Assembly (NCBI GenBank): GCA_900754085.1
Contig: CAAEBO010000045.1
Location: 1 to 61,604, forward strand
From: Clostridia bacterium
GTDB taxonomy: Bacteria; Bacillota; Clostridia; TANB77; CAG-508
Direction of reading: 5' to 3'
Length of the DNA stretch: 61,604 nt
Below the pieces are notes generated by a model, which did not search any database, had not been told where the DNA came from, and saw only the letters and a list, made by a program, of their open reading frames with translations. Position numbers and translations under genes: made by a program. Positions within the stretch are counted from its first letter, which is position 1. The number at the start of each line of letters is the position of its first letter. Positions 4,120 to 55,648 of the stretch are shown here, piece by piece.

Positions 4120-4136
4120 TGTACTAGAGAATTATG

Positions 4137-4189
4137 GCATACCTTAGATTTTCTTAGAATTTACATTTGTTAGAAAATCTTAGGTATGC
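4137..4189 (+). terminator. long hairpin element, family B copy 1 (18-bp stem, conserved 17-nt loop, T run)
   Basis: GCATACCTTAGATTTTCT / AGAAAATCTTAGGTATGC with one mismatch; loop TAGAATTTACATTTGTT; followed by TTTTG. Near-identical loop to the copy at 8458-8506. Confidence 0.7.
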
Positions 4190-4275
4190 TTTTGTATATA
4201 ATATAAAAATTAGTAAATTAATTCAATTTTAATGTGACTTGATTAGATAGTCCAGTTGTAATAATAATAATTATA

Positions 4276-8396: not shown

Positions 8397-8457
8397 ATAT
8401 GAGTCTTTAAGTTATGGATTCATAAAGTTAAACATAATAATTTTATATAACTATGAA

Positions 8458-8506
8458 GTACCTAGAATTTTCTTAGAGTTTACATTTACTAGAAGATTTT
8501 AGGTAC
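8458..8506 (+). terminator. long hairpin element, family B copy 2
   Basis: GTACCTAGAATTTTCT / AGAAGATTTTAGGTAC (16 bp including 2 G-T), loop TAGAGTTTACATTTACT, then ATTTTT. The loop differs from the copy at 4137 at only 3 of 17 positions, while the stem differs at several positions but stays base-paired. Confidence 0.7.
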
Positions 8507-8573
8507 ATTTTTATATTTAACTTAATAGTAACAAGCCCTACTATATTACCATAAAATATAGTAGGTGATAGTA

Positions 8574-12257: not shown

Positions 12258-13205
12258 ATGGATAAATTAAATGTAAAGAACTTAATTAATATTAAAGTAA
12301 TTGGAATCGGTGGAGCTGGTAACAATGCTGTTAATAGAATGATCGAAGATGGAATCGAAGGTGTAGAATTTTATGAGTTTAACACAGAAGTAAAAGTTCT
12401 CGAAAAATCAAAAACAAAAAATGTTATGCAAATCGGGAAAGAAATTACAAAAGGATTAGGTGCTGGAGGAGATGTATCCATAGGTGAAAGAGCAGCAATG
12501 GAGAGCAAAGAGGAAATCAAAAATATATTACAAGGTACAGATTTATTGTTCCTAACAGCTGGAATGGGTGGAGGAACAGGAACAGGTGCAATTCCTACAA
12601 TAGCACAATTTGCAAAAGAAATGGGAATCCTAACAGTAGGTATAGTTTCTAGACCATTTTCTTTTGAAGGAAAAATACGAATGGCAAGAGCACAAAGAGG
12701 AATAGATGAATTACGTGAAAACGTAAATTCATTAATAGTTGTTTTAAATGACAATCTATTAAAAGGAAACAGCAGAATTACATTACAAAACGCATTTAAA
12801 GAAGTAGACTTGGTTTTAGAAAAAGGAATAAAAGGTATAACAGACCAAATTGCAACACCAGGATTAGTAAACATAGACTTTGCAGATATTAGAACTATTA
12901 TTGGTTATAAAGGAAATGCTTATATGGGTATTGGTAGAGGCAAAGGCGAACACAGAAACGAAGTTGCAGTAAAAGAAGCAATAGGAAATCCTTTAACAGA
13001 AACAATGATACAAAATGCTAAAGGTGTAATTGTAAATATAGCTGGAAGTGCAGAAATGCCTTTAGATGAAATAAATGCAATTATGACTGTAATAGGAGAT
13101 AGAGTAGATAATCCAGAAGCAAATATAATTTTTGGAACAATTATAGACGATTCTTTACAAGACGAAATAATAATTACAGTTATAGCAACAGGAATAGGTA
13201 TGTAA
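12258..13205 (+). CDS. FtsZ-family tubulin-like GTPase, short form lacking C-terminal linker and tail
   Basis: IKVIGIGGAGNNAVNRMI, TAGMGGGTGTGAIP, VGIVSRPFSFEG, PGLVNIDFADIRT. Ends ...IIITVIATGIGM right after the globular domain (315 aa). Confidence 0.85.
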   Translation: MDKLNVKNLINIKVIGIGGAGNNAVNRMIEDGIEGVEFYEFNTEVKVLEKSKTKNVMQIGKEITKGLGAGGDVSIGERAAMESKEEIKNILQGTDLLFLTAGMGGGTGTGAIPTIAQFAKEMGILTVGIVSRPFSFEGKIRMARAQRGIDELRENVNSLIVVLNDNLLKGNSRITLQNAFKEVDLVLEKGIKGITDQIATPGLVNIDFADIRTIIGYKGNAYMGIGRGKGEHRNEVAVKEAIGNPLTETMIQNAKGVIVNIAGSAEMPLDEINAIMTVIGDRVDNPEANIIFGTIIDDSLQDEIIITVIATGIGM

Positions 13206-13214
13206 CCAATATTA

Positions 13215-13243
13215 GGGATTTTGGGGACGGTCCTAAAAATCCC
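13215..13243 (+). repeat. REP-like 29-bp palindromic element, forward copy
   Basis: GGGATTTTGGGGACGGTCCTAAAAATCCC, 9 nt after the ftsZ-like stop, followed by TTTTT. Confidence 0.9.
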
Positions 13244-18530: not shown

Positions 18531-19103
18531 TTGTACGATAATTGGGAAGACTTAGAAAAATCAATAATAGGTTGTAAGAAATGTAAATTATGCAATAATA
18601 GAACAAACATTGTATTTGCAGAAGGTAATAAAAATGCTAATGTAATGTTTATTGGTGAAGGTCCAGGAGCAGATGAAGATAAACAAGGAATACCATTTGT
18701 AGGAAAAGCAGGACAACTAATGAACAAAGCATTTGAAGGTTTGGGAATAGACAGAAAGAAAATATATATAGCAAATATAGTAAAATGCAGGCCACCAAAT
18801 AATAGAGTACCAGAAGTAGACGAAGCACAAGCATGCTTAAATTACTTAAGAAACCAAGTAATATTGGTAAAACCACAAATAATAGTACTAATGGGAAGCA
18901 CAGCACTTCAAAACATATTAGGAAAAGAATATAAAATAACAACAACAAGAGGACACTGGATAGAAAGAAAAGGAATAATGTATATGCCAACATGGCACCC
19001 AGCAGCACTATTAAGAGATGAAAACAAAAAAATAGACTTTTGGAAAGATCTAAAAAAAGTATTAGAAATGTGTGAAGAATTAAAAACAGAAATAGGGATT
19101 TAG
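18531..19103 (+). CDS. uracil-DNA glycosylase, family 4
   Basis: TTG start after GAGGTG. CKKCKLC, FIGEGPGADEDKQGIPFVGKAGQL, IVKCRPP, TWHPAALLR. Confidence 0.85.
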   Translation: MYDNWEDLEKSIIGCKKCKLCNNRTNIVFAEGNKNANVMFIGEGPGADEDKQGIPFVGKAGQLMNKAFEGLGIDRKKIYIANIVKCRPPNNRVPEVDEAQACLNYLRNQVILVKPQIIVLMGSTALQNILGKEYKITTTRGHWIERKGIMYMPTWHPAALLRDENKKIDFWKDLKKVLEMCEELKTEIGI

Positions 19104-19122
19104 GGATGGTCCTTAAAATCCC
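19095..19122 (+). repeat. REP-like element, forward copy (28 nt, slightly diverged)
   Basis: GGGATTTAGGGATGGTCCTTAAAATCCC. Contains the last two sense codons and the TAG stop (19101-19103) of the UDG gene. Confidence 0.8.
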
Positions 19123-37208: not shown

Positions 37209-37224
37209 TATATATAGTGTGAGG

Positions 37225-37253
37225 GGGATTTTGGGGACGTACCTTAAAATCCC
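37225..37253 (+). repeat. REP-like element, forward copy, ACGTACC centre variant (left boundary of RAYT cassette)
   Basis: GGGATTTTGGGGACGTACCTTAAAATCCC, 16 nt after the ferredoxin stop, followed by TGTTTTTTTT. Exact reverse complement of 38719-38747. Confidence 0.9.
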
Positions 37254-37355
37254 TGTTTTTTTTCTAAACATAAATTGTTATCTAAAAAATTAATTCATAG
37301 CTATAAATTAAAAATCTAAAATTAATCAAGAACAAATTAAATTTAAGGAGGTAAA

Positions 37356-38150
37356 ATGCCAAGAACATCAAGAGAAAGTATTAAATCTAATTTTATTCAC
37401 ATTGTAACAAAGGGAGTAACAAGAGAATTTATATTTTATAAAAAAGAATATAAAGATAAATATATTTCTTTGCTAAAACAAAAGTTAGAGAATGGTATCC
37501 AATTAATATCATATTGTGTTATGGACAACCATGCACATATATTAATGTATATGGAAGATATAAAAATATTGGAGAAATTCATGAAAAAACTGAACACAGC
37601 ATATGCTATTTTTTATAATGCGAAAGAAGAAAGGGAAGGATACGTTTTTGCTACTAGATATTATTCACAAATCATAAAAAATGAAAAACACTTATTACAG
37701 TGTATGCATTATATTCATAAGAATCCTGTAAAAGCTGGAATTGTAAGCTTGCCTAAAAATTATAAATATTCATCATACAATGCAATTATGAATGGAAAGA
37801 TGCAAGCTGAAATATTAAAATCTGTATTCGGAGAGAATTTTTATTATATGTATGCAGAAGCTGATGCAGAAGCTGATGCAGAAGCTGATACAGAAGAAAA
37901 TGGTAATTTTATAGAGGAAGATTTACAAAATAATATTATAGATAAAAAGGACGTAGAGGATATGATTAACGAATTTTGCAATAAAAAGGGTACAACAATG
38001 AAGCAAATAAAACAGTCAAATAAATTAATAATAGAGTTGAAGGAACATTTGAATATAAACCATAGGGTAAGTAACAAAAATATATGTGCTATATTAGGAA
38101 TTGGTAAAAATAGAATAACTCTAATAGAAAGAAAATTAAAAAAAGATTAG
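37356..38150 (+). CDS. REP-associated tyrosine transposase (RAYT; IS200/IS605-like Y1/HUH family) with C-terminal HTH-like tail
   Basis: GGAGG RBS. CVMDNHAHILMY (HUH), GYVFATRYYSQIIKNEKHLLQCMHYIHKNPVKAGIV...YKYSSY (catalytic Tyr helix, RAYT flavour). Tail ends ...NKNICAILGIGKNRITLIERKLK. Confidence 0.8.
   Translation: MPRTSRESIKSNFIHIVTKGVTREFIFYKKEYKDKYISLLKQKLENGIQLISYCVMDNHAHILMYMEDIKILEKFMKKLNTAYAIFYNAKEEREGYVFATRYYSQIIKNEKHLLQCMHYIHKNPVKAGIVSLPKNYKYSSYNAIMNGKMQAEILKSVFGENFYYMYAEADAEADAEADTEENGNFIEEDLQNNIIDKKDVEDMINEFCNKKGTTMKQIKQSNKLIIELKEHLNINHRVSNKNICAILGIGKNRITLIERKLKKD
37854..37889 (+). repeat. perfect 12-bp coding tandem repeat x3 (GCAGAAGCTGAT = AEAD)
   Basis: Read directly. Encodes AEADAEADAEAD in the linker between the Y1 domain and the C-terminal tail of the RAYT. 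Confidence 0.9.
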
Positions 38151-38293
38151 TATAATAATTGCATATGCCATATGGAAAGAATAGAAAGCAAAATCTTTTT
38201 TGTGATATACTTAAGTTCATTAATATATATGGATTTTCAGAAATCAAGAAAATTTAATAAAGCAGAATGACTAAAAAAGTACATTGATATATA

Positions 38294-38322
38294 GGGCAAA
38301 AAAGGAACGTCCCTGAAATTCC
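38294..38322 (-). repeat. decayed REP-like element (reverse orientation)
   Basis: GGGCAAAAAAGGAACGTCCCTGAAATTCC: about 19 of 29 positions match the reverse-orientation consensus. The left arm has lost complementarity. Confidence 0.45.
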
Positions 38323-38341
38323 TATAAGAGGAGTTATACAA

Positions 38342-38656
38342 ATGAAAATGACATGGATAACTAGAAGAATGAGTTATGAACAAATTAAGCCTAATAAGCA
38401 AATAAGATATATGCAAATATTACAAAGATTATGTTTGGGGAATAAGTCTGCGAAAGAGATTGCTGTGGAATTGTATAATTTAAATTTGGCAAGTACCGAT
38501 GAACGCAATGTTGCGGCGCCTAGATTAACAGAGTTAGAAAAGTTGGGATTTGTGGAAGAAACAGCAAAGAAAATATGTGAATATACAGGGAGAACTGTAA
38601 CTGTATATAAGATTACGAAAAAAGAATTTGAATTTATACATAAAGTAAATCAATGA
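38342..38656 (+). CDS. small winged-helix DNA-binding protein (MarR/ArsR-like), function unknown
   Basis: AGAGGAG RBS. 104 aa. KSAKEIAVEL...NVAAPRLTELEKLGFVEE...TGRTVTVYKIT looks like HTH plus wing. Contains locally GC-rich codons unusual for this window. Confidence 0.5.
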   Translation: MKMTWITRRMSYEQIKPNKQIRYMQILQRLCLGNKSAKEIAVELYNLNLASTDERNVAAPRLTELEKLGFVEETAKKICEYTGRTVTVYKITKKEFEFIHKVNQ

Positions 38657-38718
38657 ATACGTAAAAAAGAAAATGTAATATAAACTTAATAGTAAGAGCT
38701 GAATATGAAAGAAATATA

Positions 38719-38747
38719 GGGATTTTAAGGTACGTCCCCAAAATCCC
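38719..38747 (-). repeat. REP-like element, reverse copy, ACGTACC centre variant (right boundary of RAYT cassette; 3' of porB)
   Basis: GGGATTTTAAGGTACGTCCCCAAAATCCC, 8 nt beyond the stop of the minus-strand porB. Confidence 0.9.
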
Positions 38748-41261: not shown

Positions 41262-41290
41262 GGGATTTTAAGGACCGTCCCCGAAATCCC
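41262..41290 (-). repeat. REP-like element, reverse copy, inside the por operon (between gamma and delta genes)
   Basis: GGGATTTTAAGGACCGTCCCCGAAATCCC, 3 nt beyond the porC stop. Reverse complement is identical to the copy at 55620. Confidence 0.9.
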
Positions 41291-50006: not shown

Positions 50007-50035
50007 GGGATTTTAAGGACCGTCCCCAAAATCCC
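50007..50035 (-). repeat. REP-like element, reverse copy
   Basis: GGGATTTTAAGGACCGTCCCCAAAATCCC, 13 nt beyond the stop of minus-strand gene 50049-50987. Confidence 0.9.
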
Positions 50036-50048
50036 GCATAAATTCTAG

Positions 50049-50987
50049 TTAGACTTGTAGTTTTTTTATTATTTTTATTTCTTCATATAATTTTTCTACT
50101 ATTTCTTTTCTGGTTATATATGCTGTTTGATATTCATGATATATTTTGTGGATATTACTAAAGTTTTCGCCTTCTTCAAAAAGTATTTCCATTCCTTCTT
50201 TGTAATAGTTCTTTTTCTTTTCTGTGTGTGCTTTTTCCATTTTTTCTTCATATTCTAAAATTTGTTCTATTCTTTTTATTTGATTTTTTAAATAGTCTAC
50301 ATATCCAGAAACACAACTAATTTCATAATAAGTGTCATCTATTACTACTTTAAATAAAGCTTTTACAACTTTTTTATTAAGTTTACCAAGTTTTACTCCT
50401 TGTGCAGCATTGTCTAAAGCTGCAACTTTAATGTTTGGAGTAGTGTCTTTTATTAAGTCTTTTAAAGTGTCAGATATGTGAATATGTGTTTTGTATTGTC
50501 TTTTGGTAACTAAGGCATCGTAATCGTCTGCTACTTTTATAATTTGATCTTCGTATGGAATAGAAGAACCTTCTAAACCTTCTGGATAGCCTGTACCATC
50601 TAATGTTTCATGATGATATTTAGGACCAAGTGCATATGGTCTTAAGCGAATATCATCTATACACATTTTATAACCAATAAGTGTATGTGTCTTCATAATA
50701 TCAAATTCTTCATCAGTTAGCTTATCCGGTTTATTTAGAATTTTTGCAGGTATAAACATTTTACCAATATCATGAAGATATGCACAAATTGTACAATAAG
50801 AAGTGAAATTTTTATCACAATGCAAATATTCACATAATCTACAAGTAATACTTGCAACATTTTCACTATGGATTCTTGTAAAAGGGTCTAGACTGTCTAA
50901 CATAGTTAATTGATATCTCATTGTGACATCTAAATTATATGATTTTAAAGTGGTTTTATCATAAAAATCAAATTTGTTATCTAACAT
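50049..50987 (-). CDS. HD-GYP domain protein (putative c-di-GMP phosphodiesterase), paralogue A
   Basis: HSENVA, YLHDIGKMFIP, HHETLDGTGYPEGL, VADDYDALVTKRQYK. Coiled-coil C-terminal extension. Confidence 0.8.
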   Translation of the reverse strand: MLDNKFDFYDKTTLKSYNLDVTMRYQLTMLDSLDPFTRIHSENVASITCRLCEYLHCDKNFTSYCTICAYLHDIGKMFIPAKILNKPDKLTDEEFDIMKTHTLIGYKMCIDDIRLRPYALGPKYHHETLDGTGYPEGLEGSSIPYEDQIIKVADDYDALVTKRQYKTHIHISDTLKDLIKDTTPNIKVAALDNAAQGVKLGKLNKKVVKALFKVVIDDTYYEISCVSGYVDYLKNQIKRIEQILEYEEKMEKAHTEKKKNYYKEGMEILFEEGENFSNIHKIYHEYQTAYITRKEIVEKLYEEIKIIKKLQV

Positions 50988-51900: not shown

Positions 51901-52065
51901 TTTGTTACTCCTTTGTATATTATTATTACATATAAGTAATTAATTAATCCGAAATTTCTACAAAAATATAATATCATTAAATGAAATAAAGTTCAATATA
52001 TTGTTGATTTATATCGATTTTTAATATATTATAAGTAGGTACAAAAAGATAAAAAGGTGATAAAA

Positions 52066-55000
52066 ATGTATTTAAAAAGATTAGAATTACAAGGATTTAA
52101 ATCCTTTGCAGATAAAACAATTTTAGAATTTATGACAGGAATTACTACAGTTATAGGACCTAATGGGTCTGGAAAAAGTAATATTTCGGATGCAATTCGT
52201 TGGGTATTAGGAGAACAAAGTATAAAATCTTTAAGGGGAGCTAAATCTGAAGATATAATTTTTGCTGGAACGCAAAATAGAAAGTCTTTAGGTTTTGCAG
52301 AAGCATCTTTAGTTTTTGATAATAATGATGGTAAATTGCCAATAGAATATTCAGAAGTTACAGTTACAAGAAGAATATATAGAACTGGTGAAACAGGATA
52401 TTTTATAAATAAAACGCCATGTAGATTAAAAGATATTTTAGAATTATTTATGGACACAGGAATAGGAAAAGATGGATATTCTATTATAGGGCAAGGAAAA
52501 ATAGATGAAATATTAAGCAATAAATCAGAAGATAGAAGACATATTTTTGAAGAAGCAGCAGGAATTGTAAAATATCGTTCAAGAAAAGAAGATTCAGAAA
52601 AGAAATTAGAAAGAGCAAAATTAAATTTATTAAGAATAAACGATATATTATCAGAAATAGAAAATAATATAGAACCATTAAAAATTCAATCAGAAAAAGC
52701 TAAGAAATTTTTAAGTTTAAGAGAAGAATTAAAGGGAATAGAAGTAGGACTATTTTTATATAACATAGACTTATATAAAGAAAGATTAGAAAAAATAACA
52801 GCAGACGAAGAAATTATGAATTCAACATATGAAAGTGAAGAGAACAGTCAAAAATTAAAAAATGAAGAAAAGAACAATTTGAAGTTAGAAATAAATAACT
52901 TAATAGAAGAAATAGAAAAAATGCAAAATATTGGTTTCGAAAGTACAAACCAAATAGAAAAAATAAATTCTAATATAAATGTTTCAGAAGAAAGAATTAA
53001 TAATATAAAAGAAAACAATATAAGATATGAAACAGAAATAAATGAATTAAACGAGAAAATAGAAGAGCTAAAAGAAGAAGAGAAACAAAAAATAGCTAAA
53101 AAAGAAAATTTATATAGTAACAAAGAAAAGTTCGAAAAAGAGTTAAAAGAGAAAGAAGAAGAATTAAGTAAATTAACAACCAAATTATCTAGTAAACAGT
53201 TAGAAATAGAAAATAAAAAAAGAATAATAGAAGAAAACACAGACAATAAATATGAAATTCAGAATGAAATAAATACACAAGATGTAAAAGTGGATTCTAT
53301 AATAAAAAATGTTAAATCAAAAACAGAAGAATTGGAGCTTACAATTTCAGAATTAGACCAATCTAGATTAAAGAAAAGTGAAATAGAGCAAAACTTTTTA
53401 GATATCGAAAACAAAAGGAATAAAATAAAAAATGATTTAAGTGAAATAGAAAATAAGAAGATAGAAGCAGATAATAAAATAAAAACGTTTGAATTACAAA
53501 TAAATCAATTAGGACAAGAAATTAGAATAAAAGAATCTAGATTAAAGTTTTTAGAAGAAACAGAAAAAGAAAAAGAAGGATATACAAAAAGTGTTAAATC
53601 TTTACTTAAATCTGCAGAAGCAAATAAGGAATTGAAAAAAGGATTACACGATGTAGTAGCAAATTTAATAAATGTTAAAAAGGAATATGAAATTGCAATA
53701 GAAATGGCATTAGGTGCAAGCCTTCAAAACGTAGTTACAGAAACAGAACAAGATGCTAAAAACTTAATAGAATACTTAAGAAAGAACAATTTAGGAAGAG
53801 TAACGTTTTTACCTATTTCAGCAGTTAATGGTAAAAAACTAGAAAAGGCACACTTAAATATTAAAGGTGTAATAGGAATTGCATCAGATTTAGTAGAATA
53901 CAATAATAAATATGATGGAATATTTAAAAATTTATTAGGAAGAACAGTAATTGTAGAAGATATGGAAGCAGGAATTGCTGTGGCTAAGAAAAATAGTTAT
54001 TCTTTTAGAATTGTAACATTAAAAGGAGATATAATTAATTCTTCTGGAGCTATGACAGGTGGTTCTGTACAAACTAAAACAGTGAATATATTAGGAAGAA
54101 GTAGAGAGATAGAAGCACTAAAGGAAGAATTAAAAGGTTTAAATATAAAAATAAAAAATAAAGAAGAAGAAAAAGAAAAATATATAGATAGCATAGAAGA
54201 CCTATTAGAAACAATAGAAAGTTTAGAAACTAATTTACAAGAGATTGATATAGAGTATGCTACACAAAAACAAAAAGTAGAGCTAATAGTAGAAAATGTT
54301 GATAAATTAGTTAATAGAATGGATAAAACTAAACAAGAAATAGAAAATTTAAACAAACAAAAGATAGAAATTACTGAACATAAAAAACAATTAATAGAAA
54401 GCCTAGAAAATTTAGAAGAAGAGATTCAAAAATTAAATCTAGAAGTAGAAGAATTTGTTAGATTAAATAAAGATGACCAAACATATATAGATAATTTAAA
54501 CATGGATATAACAAACTTAAAAATATCTGTATCATCATTTGAAGAAAGCGAAATGTCAATAGACGAGATTACAGAAAGAATAAAAATAGATATAAAAAAT
54601 AATACATTAAGTTTAGAAATGAAGAAAGAGCAGATAGAAAAGAATAAACAAGAAGAGGAAAGTTTAAAGGCTAAAATAGAAGAATTACAAAATGATATTA
54701 TTAAGATAAAAGAAAATGTAAAAAATAGTGGCTCAAAAATAGAAGAATTAAAAAATGAAAAAAATGAGAAGAATACTTATTTAGAGAAAATAGAAAAAGA
54801 TATAGAAGAGCAATTTACAAAATTACAAGATATAAAAGAGCAACTAGTAAAAATTGATATAAAGAAAAATAAGACATCACAAGATTTAGAAGATGTAGTT
54901 AATAAACTATGGGAAGAATACGAATTAACTCCTAATAATGCAGGTGGATTTACAAAAACAACAGATCAAGCTAAAACACAAAAAGAAGTTAATTATTTAC

Positions 55001-55611
55001 GAACACAAATTAGAGACTTAGGAAGTATAAATATAGATTCTATTAAAGAATACCAAATATTAAAAGAAAGATATGACTTTATGTGTGAACAAAGACTAGA
55101 CTTAGAAAATTCTATGTCAAAATTAAGAAATGTAATTTCTGAAATGATAAATATAATGAAGACACAATTTAAAGATAAATTTAAACTTATAAACAAAAAC
55201 TTTAACGAAGTATTTACAGAATTATTTGGTGGAGGAAAAGCAGAATTAATATTAGAAAACGAAGAAGATGTTTTAAACTGTGGAATAGACATAAGAGTAC
55301 AACCACCAGGTAAAAAGCTACAAAATATGACATTACTATCTGGAGGAGAAAAAGCATTTACAGCAATTGCAATATTATTTGCAATATTAAAAATAAATCC
55401 AGCACCATTCTGTGTATTAGACGAAATAGAAGCAGCATTAGATGACGTTAATGTTAACAGATATGCAGAATACCTAAAGAAATTTGCAACATATACACAA
55501 TTCTTAGTAATAACACATAGAAAAGGAACAATGGAAGCAGCAGACACAGTATATGGAATAACAATGGAAGAAAACGGAATAAGTAAATTACTTTCTATGA
55601 AACTAAAATAA
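52066..55611 (+). CDS. smc: chromosome partition protein Smc
   Basis: MYLKRLELQGFKSF, GPNGSGKSNI, long coiled coils, hinge (LGRVTFLP), LSGGEKA, FCVLDEIEAALD. Start at ATG 52066 after AAAGGTGA. Confidence 0.9.
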   Translation: MYLKRLELQGFKSFADKTILEFMTGITTVIGPNGSGKSNISDAIRWVLGEQSIKSLRGAKSEDIIFAGTQNRKSLGFAEASLVFDNNDGKLPIEYSEVTVTRRIYRTGETGYFINKTPCRLKDILELFMDTGIGKDGYSIIGQGKIDEILSNKSEDRRHIFEEAAGIVKYRSRKEDSEKKLERAKLNLLRINDILSEIENNIEPLKIQSEKAKKFLSLREELKGIEVGLFLYNIDLYKERLEKITADEEIMNSTYESEENSQKLKNEEKNNLKLEINNLIEEIEKMQNIGFESTNQIEKINSNINVSEERINNIKENNIRYETEINELNEKIEELKEEEKQKIAKKENLYSNKEKFEKELKEKEEELSKLTTKLSSKQLEIENKKRIIEENTDNKYEIQNEINTQDVKVDSIIKNVKSKTEELELTISELDQSRLKKSEIEQNFLDIENKRNKIKNDLSEIENKKIEADNKIKTFELQINQLGQEIRIKESRLKFLEETEKEKEGYTKSVKSLLKSAEANKELKKGLHDVVANLINVKKEYEIAIEMALGASLQNVVTETEQDAKNLIEYLRKNNLGRVTFLPISAVNGKKLEKAHLNIKGVIGIASDLVEYNNKYDGIFKNLLGRTVIVEDMEAGIAVAKKNSYSFRIVTLKGDIINSSGAMTGGSVQTKTVNILGRSREIEALKEELKGLNIKIKNKEEEKEKYIDSIEDLLETIESLETNLQEIDIEYATQKQKVELIVENVDKLVNRMDKTKQEIENLNKQKIEITEHKKQLIESLENLEEEIQKLNLEVEEFVRLNKDDQTYIDNLNMDITNLKISVSSFEESEMSIDEITERIKIDIKNNTLSLEMKKEQIEKNKQEEESLKAKIEELQNDIIKIKENVKNSGSKIEELKNEKNEKNTYLEKIEKDIEEQFTKLQDIKEQLVKIDIKKNKTSQDLEDVVNKLWEEYELTPNNAGGFTKTTDQAKTQKEVNYLRTQIRDLGSINIDSIKEYQILKERYDFMCEQRLDLENSMSKLRNVISEMINIMKTQFKDKFKLINKNFNEVFTELFGGGKAELILENEEDVLNCGIDIRVQPPGKKLQNMTLLSGGEKAFTAIAILFAILKINPAPFCVLDEIEAALDDVNVNRYAEYLKKFATYTQFLVITHRKGTMEAADTVYGITMEENGISKLLSMKLK

Positions 55612-55619
55612 CAAAAACA

Positions 55620-55648
55620 GGGATTTCGGGGACGGTCCTTAAAATCCC
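55620..55648 (+). repeat. REP-like element, forward copy
   Basis: GGGATTTCGGGGACGGTCCTTAAAATCCC, 8 nt after the smc stop. Confidence 0.9.

Follow-up and report, generated by a model that had tools for sequence, protein, structure and literature searches.

A stretch of 61,604 nucleotides from a Clostridia bacterium (contig CAAEBO010000045.1 of assembly GCA_900754085.1), which we refer to as the window, encodes a transposase of the HUH/Y1 type between inverted copies of a 29-nt hairpin-forming repeat, further copies of which lie dispersed behind other genes of the same stretch. The pair is best explained as a REP/RAYT-type system, i.e. a repetitive extragenic palindromic (REP) sequence with its REP-associated tyrosine transposase (RAYT), of the Group 1/subclass 2.1/TIRYT branch in a small-genome human-gut Clostridia bacterium of 27% G+C; we give this reading a probability of about 0.75. 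It draws on what was observed of the family, motifs and fold of the enzyme, the excess of the repeat, the family-wide linkage of gene and repeat, the covariation of the hairpin stem, the polarity of the copies and a presence/absence polymorphism of the unit. Both the kind of system and its branch are already known, and no new kind of system is revealed here. What is new is: the uncharacterised repeat/enzyme pair in gut Clostridia; the association of Bacillota members of Group 1/subclass 2.1 with covarying hairpins bearing a conserved apical motif; and the strict transcription-sense placement of the repeats behind stop codons.

The locus lies next to the ferredoxin gene fdx and has the following components:

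37225..37253, plus strand: left flanking hairpin repeat (REP or terminal inverted repeat), GGGATTTTGGGGACGTACCTTAAAATCCC; the RAYT coding strand reads GGGGACGT
37356..38150, plus strand: RAYT/TIRYT-type HUH-Y1 gene, 264 aa, identified by the Y1_Tnp profile, motifs and structure matches
38294..38322, minus strand: decayed inverted copy, GGAATTTCAGGGACGTTCCTTTTTTGCCC, matching the consensus at 21 of 29 positions
38342..38656, plus strand: open reading frame (ORF) of 104 aa enclosed by the perfect 29-mers, with a weak winged helix-turn-helix (wHTH) signal (AraR_C, E = 0.003, below the cut-off)
38719..38747, minus strand: outer right hairpin repeat, 8 nt after the porB stop codon (minus strand) and terminator-like for porB

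The first-pass annotation had read ORF 37356-38150 as a Y1-fold protein (PF01797) and, within that fold, as a RAYT and not an IS200 TnpA. The fold is borne out by the Pfam Y1_Tnp profile, which the protein passes at 35.4 bits against a cut-off of 23. The by far best-scoring model is NCBIfam NF047646, 'REP-associated tyrosine transposase' (68.1 bits, E = 7e-19, under its equivalog cut-off of 80), while the IS200 TnpA model NF033573 gives only 11.5 bits and does not reach its cut-off of 55. Structural comparison points the same way: a profile search of the PDB sequences has 4ER8, the E. coli TnpAREP (YafM) bound to a REP hairpin, on top (E = 6e-4) with the ISDra2 TnpA behind it, and the AlphaFold model (pLDDT 80) has 4ER8 as its top structure match (E = 4.5e-6), followed by the ISDra2 and IS608 TnpA proteins. 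The distinction from IS200 stands; the more precise placement is in Group 1/subclass 2.1/TIRYT. The motifs named earlier (HAH, GYVFATRYYS and YKYSSY) are present as described, within the series CVMDNHAHILMY, GYVFATRYYS, YIHKNPVKAGIV and YKYSSY. The HUH motif is H59-A-H61 (37530-37538), and the catalytic-type tyrosine Y119 (37710-37712) lies in Y-IHK-NP; in an alignment of 21 homologues H59, H61, Y119, N123, P124 and S139 are invariant and S140 nearly so. Y119-I-H-K-N123-P124 aligns with YIYINPVKHG of 4ER8 and corresponds to the class 2 signature Y---NP (PMC6006769).

Beyond the core, residues ~197-263 form five helices in the AlphaFold model, an HTH-like tail such as had been proposed from the first reading. 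The C-terminal tails of several family members match the Pfam families HTH_24, HTH_19, HTH_11, HTH_23 and HTH_28; the window RAYT itself has no significant HTH Pfam match, and there are weak matches to sigma-70 region 4. The linker of the RAYT contains, at ~37857-37895, a 12-nt tandem repeat, GCAGAAGCTGAT, that specifies (EADA)n, and the linker region is modelled at a pLDDT of about 50; relatives of 96% identity have 256 aa, with two EADA units fewer than the 264 aa of the window protein. The gene evolves rapidly: it is 86% identical where its neighbours show 96-99%, its non-synonymous change runs 3 to 10 times faster than theirs, and its ratio of non-synonymous to synonymous substitution (dN/dS) is 0.17 versus 0.02-0.10 for neighbouring genes, a value which nevertheless indicates purifying selection. 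The family is large, with 1,776 clusters (50% identity) at E <= 1e-30 and 20,849 at E <= 1e-10. No tnpB is present.

Evidence that gene and repeat belong together comes from a genome scan that yielded 80 homologous loci, mostly of Bacillota and in the main from Clostridia metagenome-assembled genomes (MAGs), along with Sporomusa, Syntrophomonas, Alkaliphilus, Sedimentibacter, Dorea and others. The window-type 29-mer, searched in these with up to 4 substitutions, is found in the same species only, and the family-wide comparison was therefore anchored on the motif. In this comparison the RAYT gene is bracketed by inverted hairpins in ~65 of the 80 loci, so that the arrangement proposed for the window recurs in most of them: on the coding strand GGGAC[AG] stands no more than 350 nt upstream of the gene at ~70 of 83 loci, with its complement downstream in ~68 of 83. 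The geometry is constant: relative to the start codon the left copy stands at -60 to -170 and the right copy at +740 to +840, making a unit of ~0.9 kb. Distant solo copies that match the flanking hairpin of the same locus were seen at 15 of 40 loci. More than one RAYT copy within 20 kb is found at 5 of the 80 loci (three at L052; two each at L056, L057, L063 and L028), which is consistent with the partly IS-like behaviour reported for Group 1, IS standing for insertion sequence.

Several of these loci deserve mention in their own right. At L052 (Sporomusa acidovorans DSM 3132, NZ_CP155571.1, 10001-19900) a 10-kb stretch has three RAYT homologues, every one of them between the members of a common hairpin pair ~870 nt apart, and the hairpin occurs 11 times in 20 kb; in this genome the whole unit has been amplified in IS-like fashion. 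Homologues on plasmids of R. rubrum and P. aeruginosa (230-235 aa, 33-35% identical to the window RAYT) have inverted GGGGTCAG and GGGGACAG repeats on either side, at -49 and -77 and immediately past the stop codon, in the geometry seen at the other loci. This agrees with the GGGGWSAS terminal inverted repeats of TIRYTs (PMC3733652) and with subclass 2.1 (PMC6006769); these proteobacterial inverted repeats lack terminator-like hairpins. On the P. aeruginosa plasmid NZ_CP116719.1 (L178, 1-3453) AAAGGGGACAGATTTATTTTCCCTACTCTAA occurs more than 10 times, in either orientation, in the 3.4 kb around the TIRYT homologue, which is followed by a gene for a DNA/RNA non-specific endonuclease. In five Lachnospiraceae loci (L064, L078, L081, L082 and L085, from Dorea, Sellimonas, Roseburia and Faecalimonas) GGGACGG makes the stem (GGGACGGAGG...CCCCGTCCC) and not the loop: these REPIN-like inverted doublets (REPIN being the name for paired REPs) are another hairpin architecture built on the same motif.

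The repeat adopts a hairpin with a division between a family-wide apical module, GGG/GACGGTY/CYY, and a lower stem that is species-specific: the stems differ wholly between species, while conservation resides in the apical core gGGGACGGTYCT. Of the 70 upstream hairpin copies examined, 57 have G at consensus position 7 and 13 have A. When 71 loci are read in one fixed register, without per-sequence fitting, stem positions 1-10 are paired in 62-89% of them; shifted registers give 25-55% at positions 4-10. In 52 selected hairpins 77.6% of cells are paired versus 52.1% in shuffles, the covariation score is 0.677 versus 0.232 in shuffles and 0.18-0.25 in slid registers, and each of the four Watson-Crick pair types occurs at the lower stem positions. 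In 38 of these 52 a G.T forms the second pair from the loop. Because of this wobble the perfect fold is available to the GGGGAC strand only (the top strand, GGGGACGGTCC), the complementary strand having A.C mismatches; CGTC occurs only in the apical loop of that complementary strand. Rfam holds no matching family: searches of the whole window at gathering thresholds and of the locus at E up to 10 returned only chance matches to microRNA and CRISPR direct-repeat models.

Within the window, a pattern search confirms the earlier statement that the 29-mer at 37225-37253 (+) recurs at 38719-38747 (-) as its exact reverse complement. If up to 3 mismatches are allowed, the 61.6 kb contain 6 matches to it against 0.00 expected by chance (100 dinucleotide-preserving shuffles), a figure by which chance palindromes as the source of the repeats are ruled out; a looser search adds a 28-nt copy with an ATGGTCC centre and a 1-nt deletion. 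This brings the intact copies to seven, at 13215(+), 19095(+), 37225(+), 38719(-), 41262(-), 50007(-) and 55620(+), or ~1 copy per 9 kb, and recovers all five that had been noted outside the locus. The window being only 27% G+C, these G+C-rich hairpins are conspicuous. All are singlets, not inverted doublets. The dispersed ones are:

13215..13243, plus strand: 9 nt after the stop of an ftsZ-like gene (12258-13205)
19095..19122, plus strand: the 28-nt copy, overlapping the 3' end of the UDG gene (18531-19103)
41262..41290, minus strand: within the 2-oxoacid:ferredoxin oxidoreductase (POR) operon, at the porG/porD junction
50007..50035, minus strand: matching the window consensus, 13 nt after the stop of a minus-strand gene (50049-50987)
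55620..55648, plus strand: 8 nt after the stop of a plus-strand gene of 1184 aa (52057-55611)

In the second of these, the 5' stem of the repeat supplies the last two codons (G, I) and the TAG stop of the UDG gene, unlike in related species, where the stop codon is upstream of the repeat. The left flanking copy folds into a 12-pair stem, including two G.T wobbles, with the loop ACGTA; since it stands 16 nt past the stop codon of fdx and has T8 behind it, it also resembles a terminator of fdx. Its ACGTACC centre had been described as private to the two flanking copies; within the window it is indeed confined to 37225 and 38719, but at least 4 other sites on related gut-metagenome contigs (L098, L103, L106 and L093) share it. 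A second hairpin repeat of the window is unrelated to this family: its two copies of 82 nt (4125-4206 and 8444-8525), 74% identical and both long palindromes (GCATACCTTAGATTTTCT...AGAAAATCTTAGGTATGC), follow the prolyl-tRNA synthetase and spoIIID genes and look like bidirectional terminators of one origin.

A metagenome scan for the repeat gave 59 stretches, the named ones from human-gut assemblies, and the window and related loci combined provide 39 unique sites. Their placement relative to genes is strictly polar. Counting ORFs of at least 60 codons, 25 of the 39 sites follow a sense-strand ORF by no more than 40 nt (median 8 nt), and an antisense ORF ends within 40 nt at only 3, each of which has a sense ORF as well; the exclusive cases are 22 sense versus 0 antisense (p = 4.8e-7). 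The base 3' of the repeat is usually T, with T-rich sequence beyond. Both flanking copies of the locus are classed as terminator-like, one for fdx and the other for porB, each being a G+C-rich hairpin with a T run in sense orientation. A replication-strand bias was considered as the cause of the orientation and is ruled out: GC skew is positive along the entire window, which hence belongs to one replichore, and copies occur there in both orientations, following the local gene. Orientation therefore tracks transcription and not replication. In related species the same repeat family, with an ACGTTCC loop, is found at other sites.

The three outcomes that the first-pass annotation had named as fatal to its reading, namely an ORF that does not score as a Y1/HUH transposase, a 29-mer in no excess genome-wide, and repeat-rich genomes devoid of any RAYT homologue, were none of them encountered, the genome-wide ones being judged in the window and the fetched loci. 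Its view of the unit itself, however, needs revision. It had taken the 1523 bp between the perfect 29-mers, with the small wHTH ORF, as the unit. In relatives the right hairpin lies directly behind the RAYT gene, at +740 to +840; in the window this slot belongs to the decayed copy (38294-38322), which lies +938 from the beginning of the 795-nt gene and had been recognised earlier just 3' of it. It can no longer fold, and in sister strains it reads GGGATTTC..., slightly nearer the consensus. By the geometry of the family, this decayed copy is, as the sequences suggest, the canonical right end, and the ancestral unit of hairpin(+), gene and hairpin(-) is 37225 to 38322, with its right hairpin decayed.

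Two RAYT-less relatives, L149 and L156 (ERZ28637271 scaffold_9 and ERZ28617436 scaffold_26), supply the strain comparison that the annotation had proposed as a check. As far as the fdx stop codon (37208) they match the window at 94% identity; 60 unrelated bases with an ordinary terminator hairpin follow, and homology is back at window position 38316. The segment absent from them is exactly 37209-38315, holding the left hairpin, the gene and the decayed right hairpin, which marks its right edge. They keep the wHTH gene (78% aa identity in L149), while L005 has an unrelated 218-aa ORF in that slot and L010 no gene there. As the absent segment excludes the wHTH ORF, the latter is an independent neighbour, and its candidacy as a partner of the RAYT is ruled out; of the earlier description the 104-aa ORF remains, with a wHTH signal too weak to pass the cut-off. 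After the wHTH gene, L149 (4172-8171) and L156 have large SpaA/MucBP adhesin genes where the window has the POR operon, a junction that is a strain-level rearrangement or island.

Nor is the unit a recent insertion at the fdx/por junction, as had been supposed. Relatives at 99%, 93% and 88% nucleotide identity (the last being L128) have the RAYT gene behind fdx; it is next to fdx throughout L001-L010, and it stands at the fdx/POR junction itself in L005 and L010, where the neighbouring proteins are just 47-93% identical; in L009 and L021 PSP1 and fdx adjoin it. As diverged species have the fdx-adjacent position in common, it is old and mostly vertically inherited, and by parsimony the L149/L156 lineage has lost the unit. 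In this species there is one RAYT copy at one locus in every contig examined. The two flanks also evolve together: all sampled strains of the window lineage (~93-99% nucleotide identity) have the derived ACGTACC loop on both, while in the more distant L005 and L010 both show the consensus ACGGTCC. A double substitution common to the two flanks suggests that they are coupled, by conversion or re-copying. Neither of two comparisons yielded insertion boundaries: that of the L005 repeat cluster (S26 peptidase gene-holB) with the 11-nt spacer of the window, for ends and target duplications, was too diverged, and the copy at the UDG/NUDIX junction is present in every species compared. The same synteny is present on contigs of 1.2-1.85 Mb in long-read gut assemblies (L179-L188 and L169), which makes the host a spore-forming gut lineage of Clostridia with a small genome (~1.7-1.9 Mb) of 27% G+C, one represented mostly by MAGs.

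From these observations a mechanism may be sketched. The single-copy gene would produce a HUH/Y1 single-strand DNA endonuclease-ligase with a C-terminal HTH tail. By homology with E. coli TnpAREP and the IS608/ISDra2 TnpA proteins, this would bind the folded hairpin in single-stranded DNA, reading its conserved apical part, and would cleave and rejoin beside it. Over evolutionary time solo hairpins would have been seeded around the chromosome by this enzyme, and the surviving copies would be those that are useful, or at least harmless, as hairpins at transcript 3' ends. We infer both the catalysis on the window hairpin and its dissemination by the RAYT; the repeats behind stop codons most likely act as terminators or mRNA stabilisers. 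Such a 3'-end role would explain their retention at orthologous sites across species, and the copy within the POR operon (41262-41290) could set differential POR expression. A more far-reaching idea, which we offer tentatively and think doubtful, is that Bacillota Group 1 RAYTs, far from being co-opted genes without repeats, maintain hairpins that they recognise through the conserved apical GGGGACGGTYC module, as a genome-wide source of 3'-end hairpins, installed or retained behind stop codons in a transcription-coupled, strand-specific manner. The strict polarity might then arise because, where transcripts end, the non-template strand is targeted while single-stranded, and not from selection after insertion.

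Several points count against the REP/RAYT reading. The RAYT score under the NF047646 cut-off implies that it is not an equivalog of the curated RAYTs. We know of no biochemical or transposition evidence for any subclass 2.1 enzyme, hairpin cleavage being extrapolated from Groups 2 and 3. There is no GTAG at the hairpin foot, and the 5' flanks of the 39 sites are variable and A-rich; without this guide tetranucleotide the choice of cleavage site in E. coli cannot be transferred. The 52 hairpins of the covariation analysis (alignment A2) were hand-picked from 70, and the unselected analysis agrees with them less strongly. The copies are also static: 13215 and 19095, the two that could be checked, are fixed in all 10 conspecific strains, the porG/porD copy is common to the window, L005 and L010 at the same junction, and the UDG/NUDIX junction copy is conserved across related species. 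With copies fixed within the species and three junction copies common between species, there is no sign of recent movement here. Finally, both perfect flanking copies occupy terminator positions of the neighbouring genes, and their bracketing of the RAYT could be coincidental at this single locus; it is by the family-wide pattern only that coincidence is ruled out.

These last points lead to the main rival, in which the hairpins are primarily host terminators or mRNA stabilisers, spread or converged by selection, and the RAYT unit merely targets or borrows them. It readily accommodates the sense polarity with its median of 8 nt to the stop codon, the T-rich tails, the terminator-like character of both flanking copies, the G.T (in RNA, G.U) wobbles by which the sense transcript folds better than the antisense, the ordinary terminator that RAYT-less L149 has at the post-fdx position where the window has a REP, and copies that are static in the species and conserved between species. 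What it does not explain is why independent terminators should have a common 29-nt sequence, or a common 12-nt core from Clostridia MAGs to Sporomusa and Syntrophomonas, or why the dispersed copies of each genome match the flanking hairpins of its own RAYT. The fixed left distance and inverted right hairpin, found in most of the 80 loci whatever the neighbours, likewise fall outside it, as do the GGGGWSAS repeats of the plasmid homologues, which are not terminator-like, and the one copy inside an operon, at porG/porD. Since it covers the polarity but not the shared sequence, the core, the match to the own flanks or the geometry, we regard it as improbable, although a terminator function acquired by RAYT-spread hairpins is part of the reading that we prefer.

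Far less probable still are two further readings. An autonomous IS200/IS605-like element, recently inserted between fdx and the POR operon with the other 29-mers as remnants resembling miniature inverted-repeat transposable elements, would suit the Y1/HUH fold, the ~1.1-kb unit polymorphic for presence and absence, and the 5 of 80 loci in other taxa with two or three copies within 20 kb, e.g. Sporomusa acidovorans. A recent IS insertion is nonetheless excluded, since the locus is single and conserved, the ends are inverted and the protein scores only 11.5 bits against 55 with the IS200 model: IS200/IS605 ends lie on one strand, every contig examined in the species has the single copy at the single locus, and the fdx-adjacent position is common to species with 47-93% identical neighbours; moreover the right end is decayed and tnpB is absent. 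Just as slim, in our view, are the chances that the enzyme has been domesticated for a host function unrelated to the repeats (e.g. in replication or repair via a DnaA-like HTH) and that its flanks are relics. Single copy number, vertical inheritance, purifying selection (dN/dS 0.17), static repeats and the view of Group 1 as co-opted and REPIN-less in the literature (PMC5581495; bioRxiv 10.1101/2021.07.10.451892) would all agree with this. Relics, however, would not retain a covarying stem and conserved loop at ~70 divergent loci, nor would the two flanks have a derived double substitution in common, and non-synonymous evolution 3 to 10 times faster than in the neighbours is unusual for a core function. 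We therefore retain the REP/RAYT reading.

The system offers practical openings. The hairpin is an easily made substrate, as top (GGGGACGGTCC) and bottom strands with loop and wobble mutants, on which the first biochemistry of the branch could be done, and the RAYT-positive and RAYT-less relatives form a natural pair for asking if repeats decay without the enzyme. Beyond this, there is a testable link from a domesticated transposase to transcript 3' ends in abundant gut anaerobes; if true, the terminator-seeding reading would amount to a functional partnership of such a transposase with the gene expression of its host.

Knowledge of REP/RAYT systems comes almost wholly from Proteobacteria, and it is with these that the window is to be compared. 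The E. coli REPtron provides the best sequence and structure match and, like the window locus, is a single-copy HUH/Y1 gene between inverted REP hairpins. The E. coli REP and its BIME (bacterial interspersed mosaic element) arrays resemble the window repeat in being dispersed extragenically, often downstream of genes, where E. coli REPs affect termination and mRNA stability. The differences are these: the core of the E. coli enzyme (Group 2) is ~15% identical, the window enzyme has an additional HTH tail, and its host is a Gram-positive anaerobe; the window hairpin is conserved in its apical stem-loop and not in a stem bulge and foot, lacks the GTAG tag, and stands in strict sense orientation after stop codons. 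With the REPIN-RAYT systems of Pseudomonas and Neisseria (Groups 2 and 3) the window shares a vertically inherited single-copy RAYT beside a long-lived population of short hairpins, and its relatives L005 and L030 as well as the Lachnospiraceae loci have doublets; in the window itself, in contrast, the copies are singlets and the population is small and static. IS200/IS605 TnpA proteins (IS608, ISDra2) have the HUH/Y1 fold and recognise imperfect hairpins in single-stranded DNA, but their Y motif lacks the Y---NP signature, and the window protein scores 11.5 bits with the IS200 model; the elements are multicopy and horizontally mobile with ends on one strand, unlike the inverted hairpins at one locus seen here.

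The closest relatives are in the branch with long proteins. TnpAREP subclass 2.1 is described as comprising long proteins with a C-terminal HTH (Bac_DnaA_C, HTH_23 or HTH_28), equated with RAYT Group 1 of Bertels and probably with the TIRYTs of Di Nocera, and REP-like sequences were not found near its genes (Quentin et al. 2018, PMC6006769). Flanking 16-mers of Group 1 were of low frequency only (Bertels et al. 2017, PMC5581495), and its members are treated as co-opted single-copy genes without REPINs (PMC5581495; bioRxiv 10.1101/2021.07.10.451892). TIRYT genes are flanked by terminal inverted repeats sharing GGGGWSAS, some self-complementary and some moderately repeated, and Firmicutes are not mentioned among their hosts (Di Nocera et al. 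2013, PMC3733652). The window protein appears to fit this branch best, by common features and not by the authors' own profiles: it exceeds classical RAYTs in length and has an HTH-type tail and a Ser motif past the catalytic Tyr. As in the TIRYT units (TIRtrons), GGGGWSAS-like inverted repeats lie at an approximately fixed distance upstream and directly downstream, although the Bacillota motif is GGGGAC[GA][GC] and only a minority (A at position 7, 13/70) satisfies the exact published consensus. As in Group 1, which the literature notes in Clostridia too, the gene is mostly single copy with occasional duplication. Unlike in the TIRYTs, the inverted repeat of the window forms a genuine hairpin whose stem covaries and whose apex bears the conserved motif, and it is dispersed with strict polarity relative to genes. 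The largest RAYT branch, described as being without REP-like partners, thereby has hairpin partners in Bacillota.

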